From: a virus
Taxonomy: Duplodnaviria > Heunggongvirae > Uroviricota > Caudoviricetes
IMG/VR virus record: IMGVR_UViG_3300017650_000002
Strand: one strand, 5' to 3'
DNA length: 64,000 nucleotides
In this document: positions 6,083 through 35,769 of the stretch, in pieces
Layout of the letters: each line of letters begins with the position of its first letter
Numbering within the stretch: position 1 is the stretch's first letter
Program-made: the position numbers and the translations under genes
The notes under the pieces: generated by a model
What the model was told of the DNA's origin: nothing
Seen by the model: only the letters and a program-made list of their open reading frames with translations
The model's database searches: none

Positions 6083-6253
6083 ATGAAAATCACAAAAAAT
6101 CTTTGGTCAAAGCGTTACAGCGTAGCTCGCGGATGGTACTGGAAATATGAAAGGGATGTAACTGACTTTAGTGCTGACGGATGGGTAGAAATTTATGAAA
6201 AAGATGAACCTAACGTTGAATTTAGGGTATCTGTGCAGAAACCTAGAACGTAG
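6083..6253 (+). CDS. hypothetical protein (56 aa)
   Basis: Internal start MKITKNLW with purine-rich RBS (AGAGAGAGAGAAATC); followed by strong terminator. Confidence 0.4.
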   Translation: MKITKNLWSKRYSVARGWYWKYERDVTDFSADGWVEIYEKDEPNVEFRVSVQKPRT

Positions 6254-6268
6254 CAAATAAGCAACATA

Positions 6269-6296
6269 AGCCCCTTAATCGGGGCTTTTCTTATTT
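6269..6296 (+). terminator. rho-independent terminator AGCCCC-TTAATC-GGGGCT + TTTTCTTATTT
   Basis: Perfect 6-bp GC stem followed by T-run; ends the left early operon. Confidence 0.7.
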
Positions 6297-6842
6297 CAAT
6301 AACAGACTAAGTATCAGACAGCTATCAGCAGGAAAGAAGAGAAAGAAAAGAGAAATAGACCCTCTAAAACAGCTTCTGAGGCTTCAAAAGGAGATTGGCA
6401 ATACCAAACCTAGTCTAAACAAGAAAATCGCTTAAAAGGGCTTATAGCAATTCTCTAAGACTATTGTAGGGCAAGGCTTGTATGCTATAAGCCTGCCCTA
6501 TATAACAGCCCATTAAGGGGGACATGGCACGTTAGGGCTATGGACCCATACACTAATCAATAGAGAATATCTAATACCTATATAAATCAATACTTAGGAG
6601 CTATCAGAGGGGGACACTAAGTAGAAAAATGTGCATGCCGCGCCGCGCATGCTTCTAAGATATAAAGGTCGGACGTTAGGTACTAACGGGTACTGTAGGG
6701 TCGGGCCTGCCCTACTCTGTCCCCCTTAAATGTCAACCAGATTTACAATTTATTACATTTCACGCCTGGAAATGTTGTATTCCTGCACTGTTACACAATA
6801 TTATTGCTTGTTGTATCTTGTTACATTTACATTCTTGCGGGC

Positions 6843-6866
6843 AAAAGAAAAGGCCCCGAAGGGCCT
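6843..6866 (-). terminator. terminator for reverse-strand gene 6956-7552 (GGCCC-CGAA-GGGCC hairpin with A-tract on + strand = T-tract on - strand)
   Basis: GCAAAAGAAAAGGCCCCGAAGGGCC read on + strand. Confidence 0.55.
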
Positions 6867-6955
6867 GTTGAGTCTACTTAAATAGGTAGCATAGGGTAGA
6901 CCCCAGCCCAATGCCAGCCAGGACAGCCGCCAGATAAAACAACCAGAGAGGAACT

Positions 6956-7552
6956 TCAATCATACTGGCCTCCTACGTTTTCCAGGTAGGAAATACACAT
7001 GTCCACCAGCTTGTAACGACCCAGGCCCATACGGCTTTCCTTGTCCCAGTTGTGAACTCCCTGAAGGGGCAAGTGACTTTGTTCTGGCATTGTTTCAATA
7101 ATCTCGTATACAGGGTAAGTGCAGTTATGGAGACCGGCAGCATAAGCTACATTGCTCACCAGAGTATACCCGCAGGCGGATTCGCTTTCGGGATGGACCA
7201 GTTCCGTGACGTTAAAGCATACACCGTATGTTGGGTGTTGGGGGCCGTTGTCACGAAGGGAATAGAGGGCCAGCAGCATAGCTTGTACTTCATCGTCATC
7301 AGATTGTCCGATATCTTGCATATCCTTTTCCTCACGCTCGTATTGAACAGATTGGTTGACACCCAGCATTAGGTTTTCCAACGCTGTCATGTCATACATA
7401 GTGCCAACGAAGGGGTAGCACTTATCACCCTTTTCATTATACCAGGGGGTATAAGCCTTACTCATTAGCAGGTCTGCCTCAGGTGTGAGGGAATATGCAC
7501 GCATGCCACATCCAACATCCATTACTACCTTTAGCCCTACAGTCTTGCTCAT
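6956..7552 (-). CDS. hypothetical protein (198 aa), isolated reverse-strand gene inside the + strand early region
   Basis: Strong RBS (AAGGAGATACCTTAATG on - strand), own terminator, and ~700/800 bp ORF-free flanks; no recognisable domain. Confidence 0.6.
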   Translation of the reverse strand: MSKTVGLKVVMDVGCGMRAYSLTPEADLLMSKAYTPWYNEKGDKCYPFVGTMYDMTALENLMLGVNQSVQYEREEKDMQDIGQSDDDEVQAMLLALYSLRDNGPQHPTYGVCFNVTELVHPESESACGYTLVSNVAYAAGLHNCTYPVYEIIETMPEQSHLPLQGVHNWDKESRMGLGRYKLVDMCISYLENVGGQYD

Positions 7553-7771
7553 TAAGGTATCTCCTTGTGTTTATACAGCCTATACGATAACCCAAATAAC
7601 AACTAGGGCCTAATTGATTGTCTTGATGATGTTTGCATGCCCTATAGTCTCTGCCTACAAGGGGGCCAAATGTAACTAGACTCTACTTATTGTAAGAGTA
7701 TGATGATTTCCCTAGACATAGCTTGCCCCATATGATAGCCATTCCTGTTACACTCTTTTACACTTTAGTTC

Positions 7772-7801
7772 TTGACATCGTGGATATTTCTAGATTATAA
7801 T
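7772..7801 (+). promoter_or_regulatory. consensus sigma70 promoter: -35 TTGACA (7772-7777), 18-nt spacer, -10 TATAAT (7796-7801)
   Basis: Read directly in an ORF-free region; followed by a ~180-nt leader containing three GCACCT(T/C) repeats and a GGTGCTCAGCACC palindrome. Confidence 0.6.
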
Positions 7802-7981
7802 GAATAGGGGTAACGTGGGGAGGGAGGGTGCTCAGCACCTCAGATCAATGTCTGGCCCTCAGATGTATAGAGGCAGTTTATGGAAGCACCTTGGATGGTT
7901 AGCGGGTCAATAAGAAGCACCTTAACTAAGTAGACAAAGATATTTAGGTGTGCTACAGTAGGATATTTAAAGGAGGGGTAC

Positions 7982-8080
7982 ATGGAGTTTTGGAGTGTTT
8001 TTATGTGGCCTATTTGTGTGGTAGTTTTGATAGCATTTGTAGCTAATCTAGGATCTATTGAGGATTGGGTAGATGAATAG
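7982..8080 (+). CDS. putative small hydrophobic peptide (32 aa: MEFWSVFMWPICVVVLIAFVANLGSIEDWVDE)
   Basis: Strong SD AAGGAGG 4 nt upstream of ATG; downstream of promoter 7772-7801; below the ORF-track size cut-off. Confidence 0.3.
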   Translation: MEFWSVFMWPICVVVLIAFVANLGSIEDWVDE

Positions 8081-9935: not shown

Positions 9936-10691
9936 TCATGTAAGACCTAGGAGGCTCTTGTAAGACGTATAGCAATCCTCAACAACTTGTGAGATATTGG
10001 TGAGCAACCTTGGGATGTATCCGCCCTGATAGGTGCCTGGAATGGGCAGCATATTGTCCCCAATTATGTCTGCACCTGGGAGGGAAGCAACATCCCTGTA
10101 CCAAGTCTCTACGTACTGGCCGTCCACTTTACCCAACTCCACAAGCAGGTGAAACCCTCCCCTGGTGGTTACAACGGATAAGCAGCCTGGATTGATCTTA
10201 CCACGTAGGCGTGCCAATGTGTGCCCCAGAACTACTCCATCAAAGTCAATATCTACAAACACCTTCCTGGACATAGCCTTGTGCAGTGCTGTCAAGCTTT
10301 CCTGATAGACATTAGGATTATCCTCTCCATCTGCCACAACATCAGCCAGACGCTTGAGGGCCAGCTTCGCTGCCTTTACATGACTACGTGGGTTTACTGT
10401 CACATAGGCTGCCAGGGCCTCCTGTGGCACTTCAAGCCCCTTAACTGCGTAGGATCCGATGGGACTTTCCGTCTGAAGCAGCTTTAATAGCATACGATCC
10501 TTCCCAGCTACCCAACGTGCACATTGGTGCTTGTCAGATTTCATCGTGCCAATCCCTAGGTCCCTCATGTACTTATTTCTAGCCAACAAGGAGAAGTAGT
10601 AAGTCTCTCCCTTCTTTGTATCTGGCAGCCAACCGATAAACTTGTCTAGTTCATCCTGGTCCATAACCACCATGTATGTTTCTTTCATCAT
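9936..10691 (-). CDS. hypothetical protein (251 aa); weak resemblance to the catalytic motifs of archaeo-eukaryotic primase/primase-polymerase proteins
   Basis: Contains hhhDhD (VFVDIDFDGV) followed ~35 aa later by TTRGGFHLLVEL (sGxGxH-like); inference only. Confidence 0.55.
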   Translation of the reverse strand: MMKETYMVVMDQDELDKFIGWLPDTKKGETYYFSLLARNKYMRDLGIGTMKSDKHQCARWVAGKDRMLLKLLQTESPIGSYAVKGLEVPQEALAAYVTVNPRSHVKAAKLALKRLADVVADGEDNPNVYQESLTALHKAMSRKVFVDIDFDGVVLGHTLARLRGKINPGCLSVVTTRGGFHLLVELGKVDGQYVETWYRDVASLPGADIIGDNMLPIPGTYQGGYIPRLLTNISQVVEDCYTSYKSLLGLT

Positions 10692-11481: not shown

Positions 11482-12639
11482 TTACTCGTAAACTGTGATT
11501 GTTTGCTTCTTTGGTGTTACCTTTTGGACTGTAGCATAGTCCAGCTCATAGCCGTAGTGGCTATAGTAGCTGTAAAGCACTTTGTAGAACACTCCGTCAA
11601 TGTTGAAAACTGTGTAGCAGTCTTCTGCTCCACCTTCTCCACCACCGTCCTGTTCTACGAACACACCCTCTTCCAAGAAGTCACCGTCTGCCAGAATGGA
11701 ACTGAATTCATCCATGGCTGCTTCTCGTGCCTCTGCCACAGCCTCCGCATCGCTCATATCCACATTACGGAAGTAATAGCTTTCAGTGTCTACCTTGGTT
11801 GACAGCAGTTCCTTCAGGGTTTCTAGACTAATGGTCTTTGACATATAAATCTCCTTTAAATTAAGTTTCTCCAACACATTCATCATCTCTGTGTGGAGTG
11901 GTTTTAGAAAATGTTCCAGGTTCAGAATGATAAACTCTGAAGCCCACCCCTTTGTAAGGACTGTCACAGTTTTGTGCAGACTCTTATTCCAGGCTTGTTG
12001 TATTGTAATTGACTGTCCCTTATTTGTCAACTGAGGGATTAGCCACCGCTCCAGTGCAATAACAGCTATCTCCTCTTTGAACATCCGTATTTGGCTGTAC
12101 ATAGGAAGATTGTTGAACTTATTACGATCAATAAACACTTCGTGTCCATCTTTCAAACAAGTAGTGTACACTGGTTTCTCTGGATATGCAACCATCTCAT
12201 GCAAAAGATCATGTTCGTGTTGCTTTGGCACAAAGTCATCAAAGAATTCATCCTTAGTCTTGTATAAGGAAAGGAAGTCTTTGTTGCCATGCTCCACCTT
12301 CCAGTGTTCTTTCAAAGTGTTGTAGAGGATTCGGTTATACCTACCACTAGTCCTCTGACTCAGCACCAAAACATCCTGCACATGCTTCCACCAGAAGATG
12401 TCATAAGTTAGGTGGGACAATTTAATAGCTAATAGGTCCCTATTTACAGCCACTCCCCAGATTTGACTTTCGTAGGAAAAGTCGAACATCACTTCCCCCG
12501 GCATTACGCAGACATCCTCCCTACCATCAGGTAGGTAGTCCCTGCTATCTGTCCAAACATCTAAGTCTGTAGGTCTATCAGACTTCCTATGAATAGACCA
12601 AGTATTCATAGCCTTCCTTCCAACAACAATCTTACCCAT
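11482..12639 (-). CDS. hypothetical protein (386 aa)
   Basis: Long ORF; start trimmed to MGKIVVGRK because the 5' extension runs into the high-GC neighbour; no recognisable motif. Confidence 0.55.
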   Translation of the reverse strand: MGKIVVGRKAMNTWSIHRKSDRPTDLDVWTDSRDYLPDGREDVCVMPGEVMFDFSYESQIWGVAVNRDLLAIKLSHLTYDIFWWKHVQDVLVLSQRTSGRYNRILYNTLKEHWKVEHGNKDFLSLYKTKDEFFDDFVPKQHEHDLLHEMVAYPEKPVYTTCLKDGHEVFIDRNKFNNLPMYSQIRMFKEEIAVIALERWLIPQLTNKGQSITIQQAWNKSLHKTVTVLTKGWASEFIILNLEHFLKPLHTEMMNVLEKLNLKEIYMSKTISLETLKELLSTKVDTESYYFRNVDMSDAEAVAEAREAAMDEFSSILADGDFLEEGVFVEQDGGGEGGAEDCYTVFNIDGVFYKVLYSYYSHYGYELDYATVQKVTPKKQTITVYE

Positions 12640-13282
12640 TTGCCACACCCTCGTAGGTGTCCGCAAACTTGGGCTTGCCAGTCTGGGGTGTGGCATAGAG
12701 GTAGCTATTGAACGGTGCATCGGAAGTCAGCCAGGTTAGGTTGCCGAAACCGTCGATCCTGGCGACCGGCTTCACCTCGCTGGCCTGGGGCGCGGCAAAG
12801 AGCGGCATTTCGTCATGCTCCGCGACATGGCCAGCCGGACGCCAGTACACCCAAGCGTCGCTGCCTTCGTCGCGCACGCTTTCCAGCACATCTTTCTCGA
12901 TCCAGCAGACTGGCTGCGCCTCCCCGGCTACAGGGGCGCTTGCCATGTCATGGGCGATCTTCGCCGCGTCGGTTGCGCATCGCTCAAAGTTGTCGCGTGA
13001 AATGCCGAACCCCAGCGCGGTTTCGTAGTGGCTTGCGGCCACATCGCGCAGACGTTCAGCTAGCACCTCCGGATCAAACGCCGCCCGCTCATCGGCTACA
13101 GGGGCGCGCAGCTTGGATAGCAAGGCGGCCTGCACGGCAGCGCACGCCATCAACAGGCCATCTGGCGAATACGCTTCCTTGGAATTCGTTTCCCATGCTG
13201 CGGTAGCGATAGCCAGCAACTGGTCATCGCTGAACCCGATTTCTTGCCCTGCCGCCTGGGTAATGTTGTTCTGGTTAGTCAT
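12632..13282 (-). CDS. hypothetical protein (216 aa), compositional outlier (~62% GC vs ~42% background); paralog of 58799-59581
   Basis: GGAGGA RBS and TAAATG coupling to the upstream gene; shares the N-terminus MTNQN and motifs ASAPVAGEA and AAPQASEV with the 58.8 kb ORF. Confidence 0.55.
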   Translation of the reverse strand: MTNQNNITQAAGQEIGFSDDQLLAIATAAWETNSKEAYSPDGLLMACAAVQAALLSKLRAPVADERAAFDPEVLAERLRDVAASHYETALGFGISRDNFERCATDAAKIAHDMASAPVAGEAQPVCWIEKDVLESVRDEGSDAWVYWRPAGHVAEHDEMPLFAAPQASEVKPVARIDGFGNLTWLTSDAPFNSYLYATPQTGKPKFADTYEGVANG

Positions 13283-13524
13283 TTAGTCCTCCAATAATCC
13301 CCATTAAGTATATCCTGTGCATGTTCCTTGAAGTTTTCACACTGAGAACAAGAGCACCAATAGTCAGGTTTTGAGTCGTAAGCATCAGCCACTTCCACTG
13401 CAAGCTTCATCAAAGCGTGCACACGTTTGAGTATAACTTCGTTGTCAGGATCACAAACCAACTTAATTGAAAGGTCCTCCAGAAACGTGGAGTAGTCGTT
13501 TTGGATGTTAGTGCCTATTTCCAT
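13279..13524 (-). CDS. hypothetical protein (81 aa, Cys-rich)
   Basis: ORF on the - arm. Confidence 0.4.
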   Translation of the reverse strand: MEIGTNIQNDYSTFLEDLSIKLVCDPDNEVILKRVHALMKLAVEVADAYDSKPDYWCSCSQCENFKEHAQDILNGDYWRTK

Positions 13525-28958: not shown

Positions 28959-29101
28959 ACTTCCTCCTCTTGAGCAACTTATACCTAAGTATACCATGGC
29001 ACACAAGCAACGTCAATACCTGTGAAATATTACGTAAGTATATGAAATAAAAGGAAATAAATAGGAAAGGGAAAGAAAAGAAAAATAATTGTTTTACCCT
29101 A

Positions 29102-29130
29102 TTGACAAATGGAGAAACTAGTGTATAATT
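29102..29130 (+). promoter_or_regulatory. strong sigma70 promoter: -35 TTGACA, 16-nt spacer, extended -10 TGTATAAT
   Basis: Read directly. Confidence 0.6.
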
Positions 29131-29143
29131 AATCTTTAATATT

Positions 29144-29183
29144 TAATATATACTAATATATACTAATATATACTAATATATAC
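29144..29183. repeat. tandem repeat (TAATATATAC)x4
   Basis: Four perfect 10-bp units. Confidence 0.9.
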
Positions 29184-29315
29184 TAGTATTTCTTTTATTT
29201 ATTAAGCTCTATTATGTTTTTATATACATAGATAGTATTACTTAAGAAATAATATCTATGCATTAAGATTGTTTTATTCTTATGTAACAGTTTCTCATAA
29301 GAAAGATGTAAGGTG

Positions 29316-29344
29316 TTGACAAACTGTCCTACACATGATATACT
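29316..29344 (+). promoter_or_regulatory. sigma70 promoter: -35 TTGACA, 17-nt spacer, -10 TATACT, directly upstream of gene 29368
   Basis: Read directly; AAGGAAA RBS follows. Confidence 0.55.
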
Positions 29345-29367
29345 TATCCCATAAGTAAGGAAATACT

Positions 29368-33438: not shown

Positions 33439-34818
33439 ATGATTATCGGGCCTAGATCAGAATTCCAGGCCAGATACCTAAATTCTGATGCAGACATCAT
33501 TATTGCTGGAGGTGCGGCAGGAAGCTCTAAATCTTATGTAGGGCTGATGAGGCACATCAGGTGGTTTGAAGATCCATACTATCGTGGGTTCTGTATTCGG
33601 AAAAACTCCACTGCTATTATGAAGGAAGGCGGACTGTTTGATGAAGCTGTAGAGCTTTACAGACAGGTTGAGCCTAAGATTCAAATTAAGTTAAAAGACC
33701 AAAAGATTGTATTCCCATCAAGGGCTTCCGTATCATTCACACACTATGAGAATGACGCAGCAGGAAATACATTCCAAGGGTTGCAACTGTCAAGTGTCTT
33801 CTATGATGAAGCCACGCATGCTGCTGAGAAACACATTTGGTGGCTTGTGTCTCGTTTACGCTCCAAAGCTGCGATGAACCCATGCATCTGGTTGACATGT
33901 AACCCAGATCCAGACTCATACCTAAGGGAATGGGTGGATCCATGGTTATTCCCAGAAGGTCATGAGAAGGCAGGACTTCCAAACCCTGAAAAGAATGGAA
34001 GCGCCAAGTATATCATACGACAAGATGGTGATCTACGTTGGGCGGACACAAAAGAAGAGCTAATCGACCTTTATGGAAAAAACTGGCTTCCAATCGATCA
34101 CAAAGAACAGATTCAGCCAAAGAAGATCGAAGTGCACCTAGGGACCATCTATGATAACCCAACTCTTATGGAAACAAATCCAGGCTACCTATCAAGCCTA
34201 GAGGCTCTTCCAGAGGTTGAGAAGCAGAGGTTGCTACTAGGTAACTGGAACGTCCGTGAACAAGCTAGCTCCTATTTTAGCAGGAACTGGTGTGAGGAAG
34301 TTTCATACATCAATCCAAATGAAATACAGTCCACTGTTAGGACATTTGACTTCGCTATGACATTGAAGTCAGATCTTAACACTTCCCCTGACTACACAGT
34401 TTCAACCTTGATGCACAAGCTGAAGGATGGTACTTATGCTGTAGCTAGTGTAACAAGACATAGAATGCTTTCTGGGGATTGGATTAATTTCATTATAGAA
34501 ATTAGTAAGGATGACCCAAAAGGGACTTCATACTACCTCCCATTAGATCCTGGTCCTATGGCTAAACGTGCACACATAATCCTGAAGAGGGATCTTGCGG
34601 AGCTTGGATTAGCCTGTCAGACAATTAACACAAACAGTTCAAAGCTAGACAGGTTTAGGCCTTTCTCTGCATTTGCTCAAACCGGTGGTGTTAAGTTTGT
34701 AAAGGGCTGTGGGGTTGATTTGGAAAACAAAATCAACAACGAAAACAAGTTTATCTATAATGAGCTTGAAGCCTTTACTGGCGAAAGAAAGAAAGGAGAG
34801 AATGGGCACGACGATTAA
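33439..34818 (+). CDS. terL: terminase large subunit
   Basis: Walker A IIAGGAAGSSKSY, Walker B/coupling VFYDEATH, C-terminal nuclease-domain-sized region. Confidence 0.8.
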   Translation: MIIGPRSEFQARYLNSDADIIIAGGAAGSSKSYVGLMRHIRWFEDPYYRGFCIRKNSTAIMKEGGLFDEAVELYRQVEPKIQIKLKDQKIVFPSRASVSFTHYENDAAGNTFQGLQLSSVFYDEATHAAEKHIWWLVSRLRSKAAMNPCIWLTCNPDPDSYLREWVDPWLFPEGHEKAGLPNPEKNGSAKYIIRQDGDLRWADTKEELIDLYGKNWLPIDHKEQIQPKKIEVHLGTIYDNPTLMETNPGYLSSLEALPEVEKQRLLLGNWNVREQASSYFSRNWCEEVSYINPNEIQSTVRTFDFAMTLKSDLNTSPDYTVSTLMHKLKDGTYAVASVTRHRMLSGDWINFIIEISKDDPKGTSYYLPLDPGPMAKRAHIILKRDLAELGLACQTINTNSSKLDRFRPFSAFAQTGGVKFVKGCGVDLENKINNENKFIYNELEAFTGERKKGENGHDD

Positions 34819-34915
34819 CAAATAGGTCGTCTTTAAATCTATTGAAAACGGTGAAAACCCTCGTAAGAATTTACCTGGACAATACCGTGCGAAGCCTGGC
34901 AACAGGAACGTGTAA

Positions 34916-34954
34916 CGACTATCCCTTCGGGGAGTACACCCAAGTGGGTGGAAG
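34916..34954 (+). repeat. 39-bp intergenic element CGACTATCCCTTCGGGGAGTACACCCAAGTGGGTGGAAG (two hairpins), copy A
   Basis: Identical 39-mer recurs at 47807-47845; both copies are followed ~25-30 bp later by a GATATAGTC motif. Confidence 0.85.
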
Positions 34955-35031
34955 CGGTAGACACACAAAAGTGTGATGATATAGTCTAATCTGCATAGTA
35001 ATATGCAGCAGCCTTAACATGGAGAATTTCT

Positions 35032-35769
35032 ATGGCACATTTAAAAACAAGCATTCAGTATAAAGAATTTTACGAGTCTAACCTTTGGGGAACTATGCAG
35101 GTTGTCGATAGAAAACCTGGAAAGTTGAAGGTTAGGTTTACAGAGACAGGGTATGAGACTTGGGCTTACACCTACAACGTGTTGAACGGAAAAGTTGAAG
35201 ATAAAGTTGCTAGAGAGTCTTCAAAAACTAGGTGGAAACCCTACCATAAAGAGTTTTTGTCAAACTCTGGACATAGGTTCACGGCTTATGAGAAGTTAGG
35301 GAATAAGCTTAGGATTATCTTCCCTGTCACAGGATATTCAACAGTTGTGTACCAGAACAATGCAATTTCGGGTAAGGTTTCAGACCCTTACGAAATTTCT
35401 GTCCTTGGCGTAGGCTTTATTGGGGAATTTGACAAGTCAGTCCCTTATTGGAAACAGGCTAAGCAACTTTGGAATAATATGATGAAACGGTGTTATAACC
35501 CAAATGACACACGTGGATATTTTGGTGAATGCTTTGTTAGTGAAAGTTGGAAATGTTTTTCAAACTTCTTGAATGATATAAAACGATTGGAAGGATTCCA
35601 AGAGTGGTTGTCAGGAAAAATCCCGTATGATCTTGACAAAGATTCAAAGGTACTTGGGAACAAAGTTTATTCTTTTCCAGCTTGTAGATTTCTCCCTAGG
35701 ACTGAGAATAGATCACTAGGGGCAATCAATGCAAGAAAGGCTGGGCCTGTACTAACGACACAGGCTTAA
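35032..35769 (+). CDS. homing-endonuclease-like protein (N-terminal DNA-binding repeats + HNH_3-like core related to 18393/21825/31383)
   Basis: LWNNMMKRCYNP ... DLDKDSKVLGNKVYSFPAC pattern shared with the paralogs; free-standing between terminase and portal. Confidence 0.45.
   Translation: MAHLKTSIQYKEFYESNLWGTMQVVDRKPGKLKVRFTETGYETWAYTYNVLNGKVEDKVARESSKTRWKPYHKEFLSNSGHRFTAYEKLGNKLRIIFPVTGYSTVVYQNNAISGKVSDPYEISVLGVGFIGEFDKSVPYWKQAKQLWNNMMKRCYNPNDTRGYFGECFVSESWKCFSNFLNDIKRLEGFQEWLSGKIPYDLDKDSKVLGNKVYSFPACRFLPRTENRSLGAINARKAGPVLTTQA

Follow-up and report, generated by a model that had tools for sequence, protein, structure and literature searches.

We analysed a 620-bp gene-free region (positions 6254-6873) in a 64,000-nucleotide stretch (hereafter the window) of the caudoviricete virus record IMGVR_UViG_3300017650_000002, and tentatively read it as the terminal-repeat and packaging region of this phage. 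That is, 6254-6873, possibly together with a neighbouring two-gene cassette and a second gene-free gap behind it (gap 2), may form the non-coding genome terminus, being a direct terminal repeat (DTR) or part of one, plus the DNA that is recognised in packaging. This was the likeliest of the readings weighed because the region sits where relatives of the Felix O1/PAK_P3 type carry their DTR. The region itself is real, non-coding and of a cis-acting type, and its closest experimentally characterised counterpart is a DTR. The terminal-repeat region of Felix O1/PAK_P3-type myoviruses is a known kind of element, and the best-supported interpretation is that a further example of it was found here.

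Position of the region and its likeness to mapped terminal repeats

To judge from its encoded proteins, the phage is a ~92-kb Felix O1/PAK_P3-like myovirus. The window encodes the terminase large subunit (TerL), portal, tail sheath and baseplate proteins, helicases, an RNA ligase and six tRNAs. TerL matched PHROG 979 and was related to those of phages packaging with short DTRs, being 59.6% identical to TerL of Pseudomonas phage vB_PsaM_M1 (Ounavirinae; hereafter M1), 37% to that of Pakpunavirus and 33% to that of Felixounavirus. The portal protein was 51% identical to that of M1 and 41% to that of Nankokuvirus (PAK_P3, Ab03). A 92,018-bp metagenomic contig carries the same sequence, as do several short contigs; all are 99-100% identical and thus without variation usable for covariation or conservation. 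No close relatives were found in the phage, viral-contig and protein collections. Megablast and blastn searches of the region against the phage collection gave no match; scans with exact and degenerate patterns, for its 12-mer inverted pair in viral contigs and for its bipartite box in metagenome contigs, were equally negative.

The gene callers of the public assemblies placed no gene in 6254-6873. A preliminary description made from the letters alone had reported that 6254-6955 holds no open reading frame (ORF) of at least 60 aa, which was borne out, the longest being 51-52 aa. It had also regarded this whole stretch as ORF-free. That was correct for 6254-6873, whereas the final 82 bp (6874-6955) are part of a called minus-strand gene (6874-6963) coding for a 29-aa peptide. 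The 620-bp gap is the largest within the first 19.6 kb of the window. It is placed at the 3' end of a plus-strand early operon, which has consensus sigma-70 promoters at 508 and 2462, and between two convergent terminators (Table 1). A terminator of a similar kind stands at the matching border in L012 and L040, two of the relatives described below. A search of the gap for sigma-70 promoters at a threshold of at least 9/12 found none. Upstream, identical terminator hairpins (AGCCCCGTTGACACGGGGCT plus a T-run) occur at 501-536 and 2455-2490 of the window; their loops contain a perfect -35 element TTGACA with TAAAAT 17 nt further on, and they are terminator-promoter cassettes. We take these cassettes to resemble the 'promoter early stem-loops' of some T4-type phages.

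The comparison with relatives was anchored on a conserved DUF7275 protein (11482-12720, minus strand). A 182-aa upstream protein was rejected as an anchor, being a promiscuous and non-syntenic accessory gene, and the 198-aa neighbour of the region, having no homologue, was unusable for this purpose. In the window and in the relatives, the gene order ran from an early plus-strand operon of ORFan genes through a gene-free gap to the next cluster, and a gap in the same slot, just past the early-operon terminator, was found in every lineage whose flanks reach that far. A gene-free and repeat-laden gap of 0.6-1.6 kb was observed in seven other lineages, namely M1, Alteromonas phage V22, three metagenomic relatives, Nankokuvirus and Felixounavirus. 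Pakpunavirus also has a gap there, its repeat carrying one HNH gene, and Ab01 of this genus showed the same layout. The gap measured 866 bp in M1 (repeats TCTGTA), 1.6 kb in V22 (repeats AAAATATMCCCTTTCTT), 1.1 kb in L012 (at least eight copies of TTCTAATTGTAAC), 808 bp in L040 (repeats AATGTTCC; 4.7 kb past DUF7275, as in the window), 792 bp in L044 (six copies of GAGATAATC) and 921 bp in PAK_P3. The paper on V22 reported no non-coding RNA and no small terminase subunit, and left the gap undiscussed (PMC7289586). The preliminary description had named ordinary small genes at this place in related phages as the finding that would speak against it; the relatives' gaps were gene-free and repeat-rich instead, and the region came through this test. 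When all syntenic gaps were cross-aligned, the matches were at the level of motifs only, plus one promoter-leader match between M1 and gap 2. Motifs related to the array of the window were found in the Nankokuvirus terminal repeat, the L012 gap and the Felixounavirus terminal region. GTTACA/TGTAAC was the top enriched 6-mer of both the PAK_P3 gap (p 3e-9) and the L012 gap (p 3e-8), and CTGTTACACAAT of the window (6788-6799, within its T/G-rich cluster) is comparable to GTTACACAAT in PAK_P3 and CTGTTACAATTAG in L012.

The slot occupied by the region is the slot of the mapped DTRs of Nankokuvirus and Pakpunavirus. Members of the relative groups package with short DTRs (PMC4482731, PMC13510664, PMC12846349, PMC11737134, PMC3185647). 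For example, PhageTerm assigned PAK_P3 a T7-like DTR with termini 'around 63 kb' (PMC13510664), a position that corresponds to its syntenic gene-free gap, and transcription of this syntenic region was negligible (PMC4933390). Ab03 was deposited with a 771-bp repeat at both ends; the repeat is located in the syntenic gap and was mapped via read peaks (PMC4482731). The 1153-bp repeat of Ab01 lies in the syntenic slot as well and carries one 197-aa HNH gene. The window has the same layout as Ab03, PAK_P3, Ab01 and H12, the gap following the 3' end of the early ORFan operon.

The Nankokuvirus DTR (KPP10/PAK_P3/Ab03; 756-771 bp) is likewise of sub-kilobase length and is found in gene-free DNA directly behind the early ORFan operon; a strong sigma-70-type promoter serving the next cluster comes after it. 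It holds arrays of TTGTGTAAC resembling CTGTTACACAAT of the window, and its six copies of ATTGTGTAAC and two to three of GTTACACAAT, in both orientations, resemble CTGTTACACAAT and the TTACA cluster. However, the window has no sequence alignable with this DTR and fewer motif copies, and it differs by its prominent compound palindromes, its G5ACA boxes and a minus-strand two-gene cassette that splits the gap. Furthermore, the termini of Nankokuvirus were read-mapped, whereas the window is known from assembled sequence alone. The Pakpunavirus DTR (PAK_P1/Ab01/Adele; 1153-1165 bp) takes the same position, with early plus-strand genes, non-coding DNA, the repeat and the next cluster in this order. 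Its one ~197-aa gene is flanked by non-coding DNA, which parallels the 198-aa gene between two gaps in the window, where two boxes lie 1144 bp apart. However, the gene of Ab01 encodes an HNH endonuclease (PHROG 953) unrelated to the orphan of the window, the motif is TTTGCAT, and the gene orientation differs. In Felixounavirus H12 (PP952733; L065/L066), the corresponding stretch is ~1.65 kb long, almost gene-free, and lies across the record ends between plus-strand small-gene and minus-strand clusters. It contains ~20-30 YTGTTAR motifs, which resemble CTGTTAC/CTTGTTAC, CTGTTACACAAT and TTACA of the window in class and polarity; by sequence, ~20 TGTTAA, 11 TGTTAAGA and 8 CTTGTTAG were counted there in both orientations. 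The record ends of H12, possibly its mapped termini, fall inside this gene-poor stretch. H12 has far more motif copies than the window, and the TerL identity between them is only 33%. Phage T7 has a short non-permuted terminal repeat, with short-repeat arrays and with nearby inverted repeats used in end processing. It is a podovirus whose sequence is unrelated; its repeat spans 160 bp, and it has an RNA polymerase of its own. The analogy is one of mechanism only.

If the region is a DTR, its two copies would have been collapsed into one in the assembly. The terminase, with a DNA-binding partner, would recognise the short-repeat array on concatemeric DNA and would cut at fixed sites at both repeat borders, the motifs and boxes possibly serving as the sites of recognition or cutting. 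The repeat would be duplicated, so that each virion DNA would have a copy at both ends, and the two copies could recombine after injection to give a circular genome. The flanking terminators would shield the terminus DNA from transcription. The repeat borders may lie within 6290-6850, or the repeat may extend over the 198-aa cassette and gap 2. A more specific and, in our estimate, improbable version is that the short-repeat arrays are the packaging recognition site of the whole Felix O1 supergroup and that the 34-nt boxes at 6491-6524 and 7635-7668 are the cut sites; this would give a ~1.1-kb terminal repeat with the 198-aa gene present twice per virion. In the repeats of Ab01 (L037/L039) and Ab03 (L020/L021), all four borders had a G/T-rich sequence ending in GTT(N) before them and A(A/G) after them (GTGTTA-AG, GTGGTT-AA, ATGTTCA-AG and CTTGTT-AA, the hyphen marking the border). 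This GTT(N)-A(A/G) may be a shared cutting-site signature.

Several observations weigh against a DTR here. Contig ends from several samples clustered at 6095-6660 (6095, 6127, 6268, 6335, 6587 and 6658) and not at one base, these being ends of assembled contigs only; as a proxy for physical ends they were not decisive, other breaks being explained by strain variants. The record of M1, the closest cultured relative, was opened arbitrarily. The characterised comparators are distant (portal 41%, TerL 33-37%), the alignable sequence consists of short motifs only, and the sequence of the region is not conserved with any relative. The TTACA/YTGTTR-class array is small (4-9 copies), and for the most enriched 6-mer of the gap the p value of 3e-5 was borderline after correction for 2080 6-mers. 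The gene next to the gap of L012 is similar to a replication-initiator DNA-binding domain, and for that relative this speaks in favour of an origin.

If the DTR interpretation is true, the physical ends and the true gene order of an uncultured ~92-kb marine-type myovirus would be fixed, and the largest non-coding region of the phage would be explained. Felix O1-, PAK_P3-, PAK_P1-, V22- and M1-like phages all have a gene-poor or gene-free stretch behind the early operon, which in most of them is filled with lineage-specific short repeats; in the mapped cases this slot is the terminal repeat. Annotators would thereby have a simple guide to the point at which such genomes should be opened. The region would also be a candidate cis-site for the packaging-recognition step of the group, and in some relatives a helix-turn-helix (HTH) protein encoded next to it would be a candidate for the same step. 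For replication or RNA-regulation biology, the finding would be an ordinary one.

Repeats, palindromes and structure of the region

The sequence items listed in the preliminary description were all present, at most a few bases away from where it had put them. Its imperfect hairpin was confirmed (TAGGGCAAGGCTT 6467-6479 / AAGCCTGCCCTA 6489-6500), as were a second copy of GCCTGCCCTA at 6705-6714, within a weak hairpin (GTAGGG 6695-6700 / CCCTAC 6710-6715), a third repeat copy, AGGGGGACA, at 6608-6616, the GC palindrome at 6633-6652 and the TTACA repeats (five copies, 6743-6831). An inverted pair described as 11 bp long exists and is in fact perfect over 12 bp (TTAAGGGGGACA 6513-6524 / TGTCCCCCTTAA 6718-6729). 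These elements belong to larger arrangements (Table 1). Compound palindrome A also holds an overlapping 11-bp inverted repeat (GGCTTATAGCA 6439-6449 / TGCTATAAGCC 6483-6493). Compound palindrome B contains the GC palindrome, a hairpin at 6673-6688 and the GCCTGCCCTA hairpin (6695-6715), and its right arm pairs perfectly with 6513-6524 too.

With DNA parameters, segments 6430-6530 and 6600-6735 gave more stable folds than shuffled sequence on both strands (z -2.3 to -3.6). Palindrome A gave z -3.1 on the plus and -3.6 on the minus strand, and palindrome B -2.5 and -2.3, respectively. With RNA parameters, palindrome B on the plus strand was the sole standout (z -3.6, compared with -1.75 on the minus strand). 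Both compound palindromes fold equally well on both strands, a symmetry that points to palindromes at the level of DNA.

The preliminary description had offered a structured RNA as its alternative, either of two forms of which could be considered here: a ~125-nt plus-strand RNA at 6603-6732, or a minus-strand small RNA ending at the GC hairpin (6652-6633). We regard such RNA genes as very improbable. The plus-strand fold at 6600-6735 (z -3.6) contains four G-U pairs that are mismatches on the other strand, the whole gap gave z -3.7 on the plus and -2.6 on the minus strand, the minus strand has a terminator-like hairpin with a T-run at 6652-6633, and small RNAs are expressed elsewhere in related phage genomes (PMC4933390). 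However, the Rfam scan that had been suggested (Rfam 15) gave no hit in the region at the gathering score and, up to E 10, nothing above chance level; the best hit scored 19.9 bits where the cut-off is 50. Nor did ARAGORN detect a tRNA or tmRNA in the region. The gap has no sigma-70-like promoter of 9/12 or better, terminators insulate it on both sides, the DNA-parameter folds were equally significant on both strands, our searches found no homologous sequence for covariation, and the syntenic region of PAK_P3 is untranscribed (PMC4933390). The 12-bp inverted repeat was rejected as stand-alone proof of a closed RNA domain: within gaps of at most 300, one perfect 12-bp inverted repeat was observed in the window, and the expectation for random sequence is 1.4. 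The idea that CTATAGGGCA (minus strand) is a T7-like promoter was dropped as well, as there are only three local copies and no single-subunit RNA polymerase was noticed among the scanned window proteins.

Single repeats are often within chance expectation, and the region as a whole is beyond it. Among the 700-bp loci of the 64 kb it ranks second in repeat density, with 34 8-mer pairs, 19 of them inverted, against a mean of 8.7 (sd 7.2). TTACA reaches 5 copies per 100 bp (background 0.15), and YTGTTR 4 per 120 bp, with at most 2 elsewhere in the window; for both motifs this is the unique densest cluster of the window, on the plus strand. The most enriched 6-mer of the gap was AAATGT/ACATTT, with TAGGGC and GGGGGA also among the top ones. 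A functionless spacer, or a decayed remnant between convergent operons with chance repeats, would be in keeping with the individual repeats that lie within expectation, with the missing conservation and with an adjoining cassette that is an orphan. It is nevertheless rather improbable, as phage genomes are compact, this gap is the largest in ~20 kb and dense in repeats, two motifs have their densest cluster in it, and such a gap has been kept at the same place in eight lineages. For comparison with the purine tract listed in Table 1, M1 has a pyrimidine-rich tract after its early terminator.

Table 1. Features of the gene-free region, the adjoining cassette and gap 2 (positions in the window)
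Feature	Position	Strand	Remarks
Intrinsic terminator hairpin AAGCCCCTTAATCGGGGCTT + T-run	6268-6287	+	ends early operon (last gene 6083-6253); left border of gap
Pure purine tract, 26 nt, AGGAAAGAAGAGAAAGAAAAGAGAAA	6330-6355	+	AT skew 0.28-0.29
Compound palindrome A	6431-6517		outer stem CTTAA/GGGCT ... AGCCC/TTAAG around hairpin 6467-6500
Bipartite box copy 1, GCCTGCCCTATA-N12-AAGGGGGACA	6491-6524	+	recurs with identical spacing at 7635-7668
Compound palindrome B	6606-6729		closed by GAGGGGGACA 6607-6616 / TGTCCCCCTT 6718-6727; re-uses both half-boxes
T/G-rich short-motif cluster	6743-6870	+	TTACA x5 (6743, 6753, 6791, 6821, 6827), YTGTTR x4 (6788, 6808, 6818, 6865)
Intrinsic terminator AGGCCCTTCGGGGCCT + TTTTCTTTT	6851-6866	-	ends 198-aa/29-aa gene pair; right border of gap
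Two-gene cassette	6874-7552	-	gene calls: 198-aa orphan 6956-7552, 29-aa hydrophobic peptide 6874-6963
Second gene-free gap (gap 2)	7553-7981		box copy 2 (7635-7668), TGTAAC/GTTACAC/TTTACAC (7671, 7747, 7756), sigma-70 promoter
Perfect sigma-70 promoter	7772-7801	+	in gap 2

Replication origin and other protein-binding sites

The preliminary description had seen iteron-like repeats and an AT-rich unwinding segment in the region, the anatomy of a replication origin whose repeats would bind an initiator while the adjacent T/A-rich segment melts. We consider such an origin unlikely, although one could coexist with a terminal repeat. Like iteron-type origins (lambda ori, plasmid oriV), the region consists of non-coding, repeat-dense DNA with a T/A-rich flank. 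Regular iteron-like arrays are present in the gaps of V22 and L044, and in L012 (9666-11115) the gap with its TTCTAATTGTAAC copies lies next to the gene for a 108-aa HTH_36 protein with a match to PHROG 'replication initiation protein' families (E 2e-11). However, the window has no regular 17-22-bp direct-repeat array; what had been taken for iterons amounts to three 9-mers spaced 92 and 102 bp apart, of which two are direct and the third is inverted. Nor did a strong unwinding element exist: the lowest GC content was 32% per 100 bp, which makes the segment only the 13th most AT-rich locus of the window, compared with 12% at 29131. No DnaA boxes were found in the gap, the neighbouring genes had no family match, no adjacent initiator or DNA-binding gene was seen, and the 64 kb encode no homologue of the HTH proteins of the relatives. 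Furthermore, Hi-C coverage of PAK_P3 suggests a single replication start near the record ends and not at the 63-kb gap (PMC13510664).

A much better origin-like site is available in the window. The divergent gap 29007-29367, between minus-strand DNA-metabolism genes and plus-strand tRNA/terminase genes, carries TAATATATAC x4.6 at 29144-29189 with a 10-bp period, in the most AT-rich 100 bp of the window (12% GC). Two consensus sigma-70 promoters (TTGACA at ~29103 and ~29317) and a purine tract lie in this gap too. It is a better candidate for an origin or unwinding element than 6254-6873.

A homologue of the L012 protein is encoded at the same place in L014 (13940-14344). In L044 (15525-17054) and L040 (15150-16672), the gaps are flanked by HTH proteins homologous to each other (E 4e-17), and that of L044 scored 24.8 bits with Pfam PF10668 'phage terminase small subunit', above the cut-off of 22. 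The L044 protein is a candidate small terminase subunit, none having been identified so far in Felix O1-like phages.

A protein-binding platform other than the physical terminus was also considered, namely operator or architectural sites by which a nucleoid-associated protein or regulator would organise or silence the early region. The bipartite box GCMTGCCCTATA-N12-AAGGGGGMCA, which is found twice on either side of the 198-aa cassette, would suit this purpose, and genes for HTH proteins adjoin the gap in L012, L040 and L044. In PAK_P3, an early-region loop at 3 min was anchored by two gene-free, untranscribed sequences (PMC13510664). However, no binding protein was identified in this phage, and because the terminus region serves as one of the two anchors in PAK_P3, the platform is hard to separate from a DTR. 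We rate it as a rather improbable explanation.

The orphan cassette, gap 2 and other features of the window

The 29-aa gene of the cassette overlaps the stop of the 198-aa gene, whose product is acidic. The 198-aa protein had no homologue among 5.8 billion proteins, and neither member of the pair matched Pfam or PHROG. The cassette separates the region from gap 2 and looks inserted into a gap that is single in M1. The single gap of M1 and the promoter/leader of gap 2 share a 17-nt identical stretch and 70% identity over 69 nt overall; since the M1 gap matches gap 2 in this way, the two gaps of the window look like one ancestral gap that was split by the orphan cassette. The gap-2 promoter is followed by a leader of ~170 nt (window 7772-7990). 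The promoter spacer/-10 and a small hairpin, GGTGC-TCA-GCACC, are conserved with M1 (L018 17040-17130), apparently with compensating changes. In assembly L025, 33 bp are inserted at 7886, amid AGCACC repeats.

Three further features were observed in the window. A group I intron (Rfam RF00028, 72 bits) is located at 34743-35008, between the TerL ORF (33439-34818) and the ORF at 35032-35769. The minus strand at 9936-10691 encodes a 251-aa protein without a Pfam or PHROG match, whose motifs VDIDFDG and TTRGGFHLLV recall the catalytic motifs of archaeo-eukaryotic primases/primase-polymerases. Finally, a GC island at 12600-13350 (58-65%, against 44% for the window) lies over a 216-aa minus-strand ORF (12632-13282) and is possibly acquired DNA.

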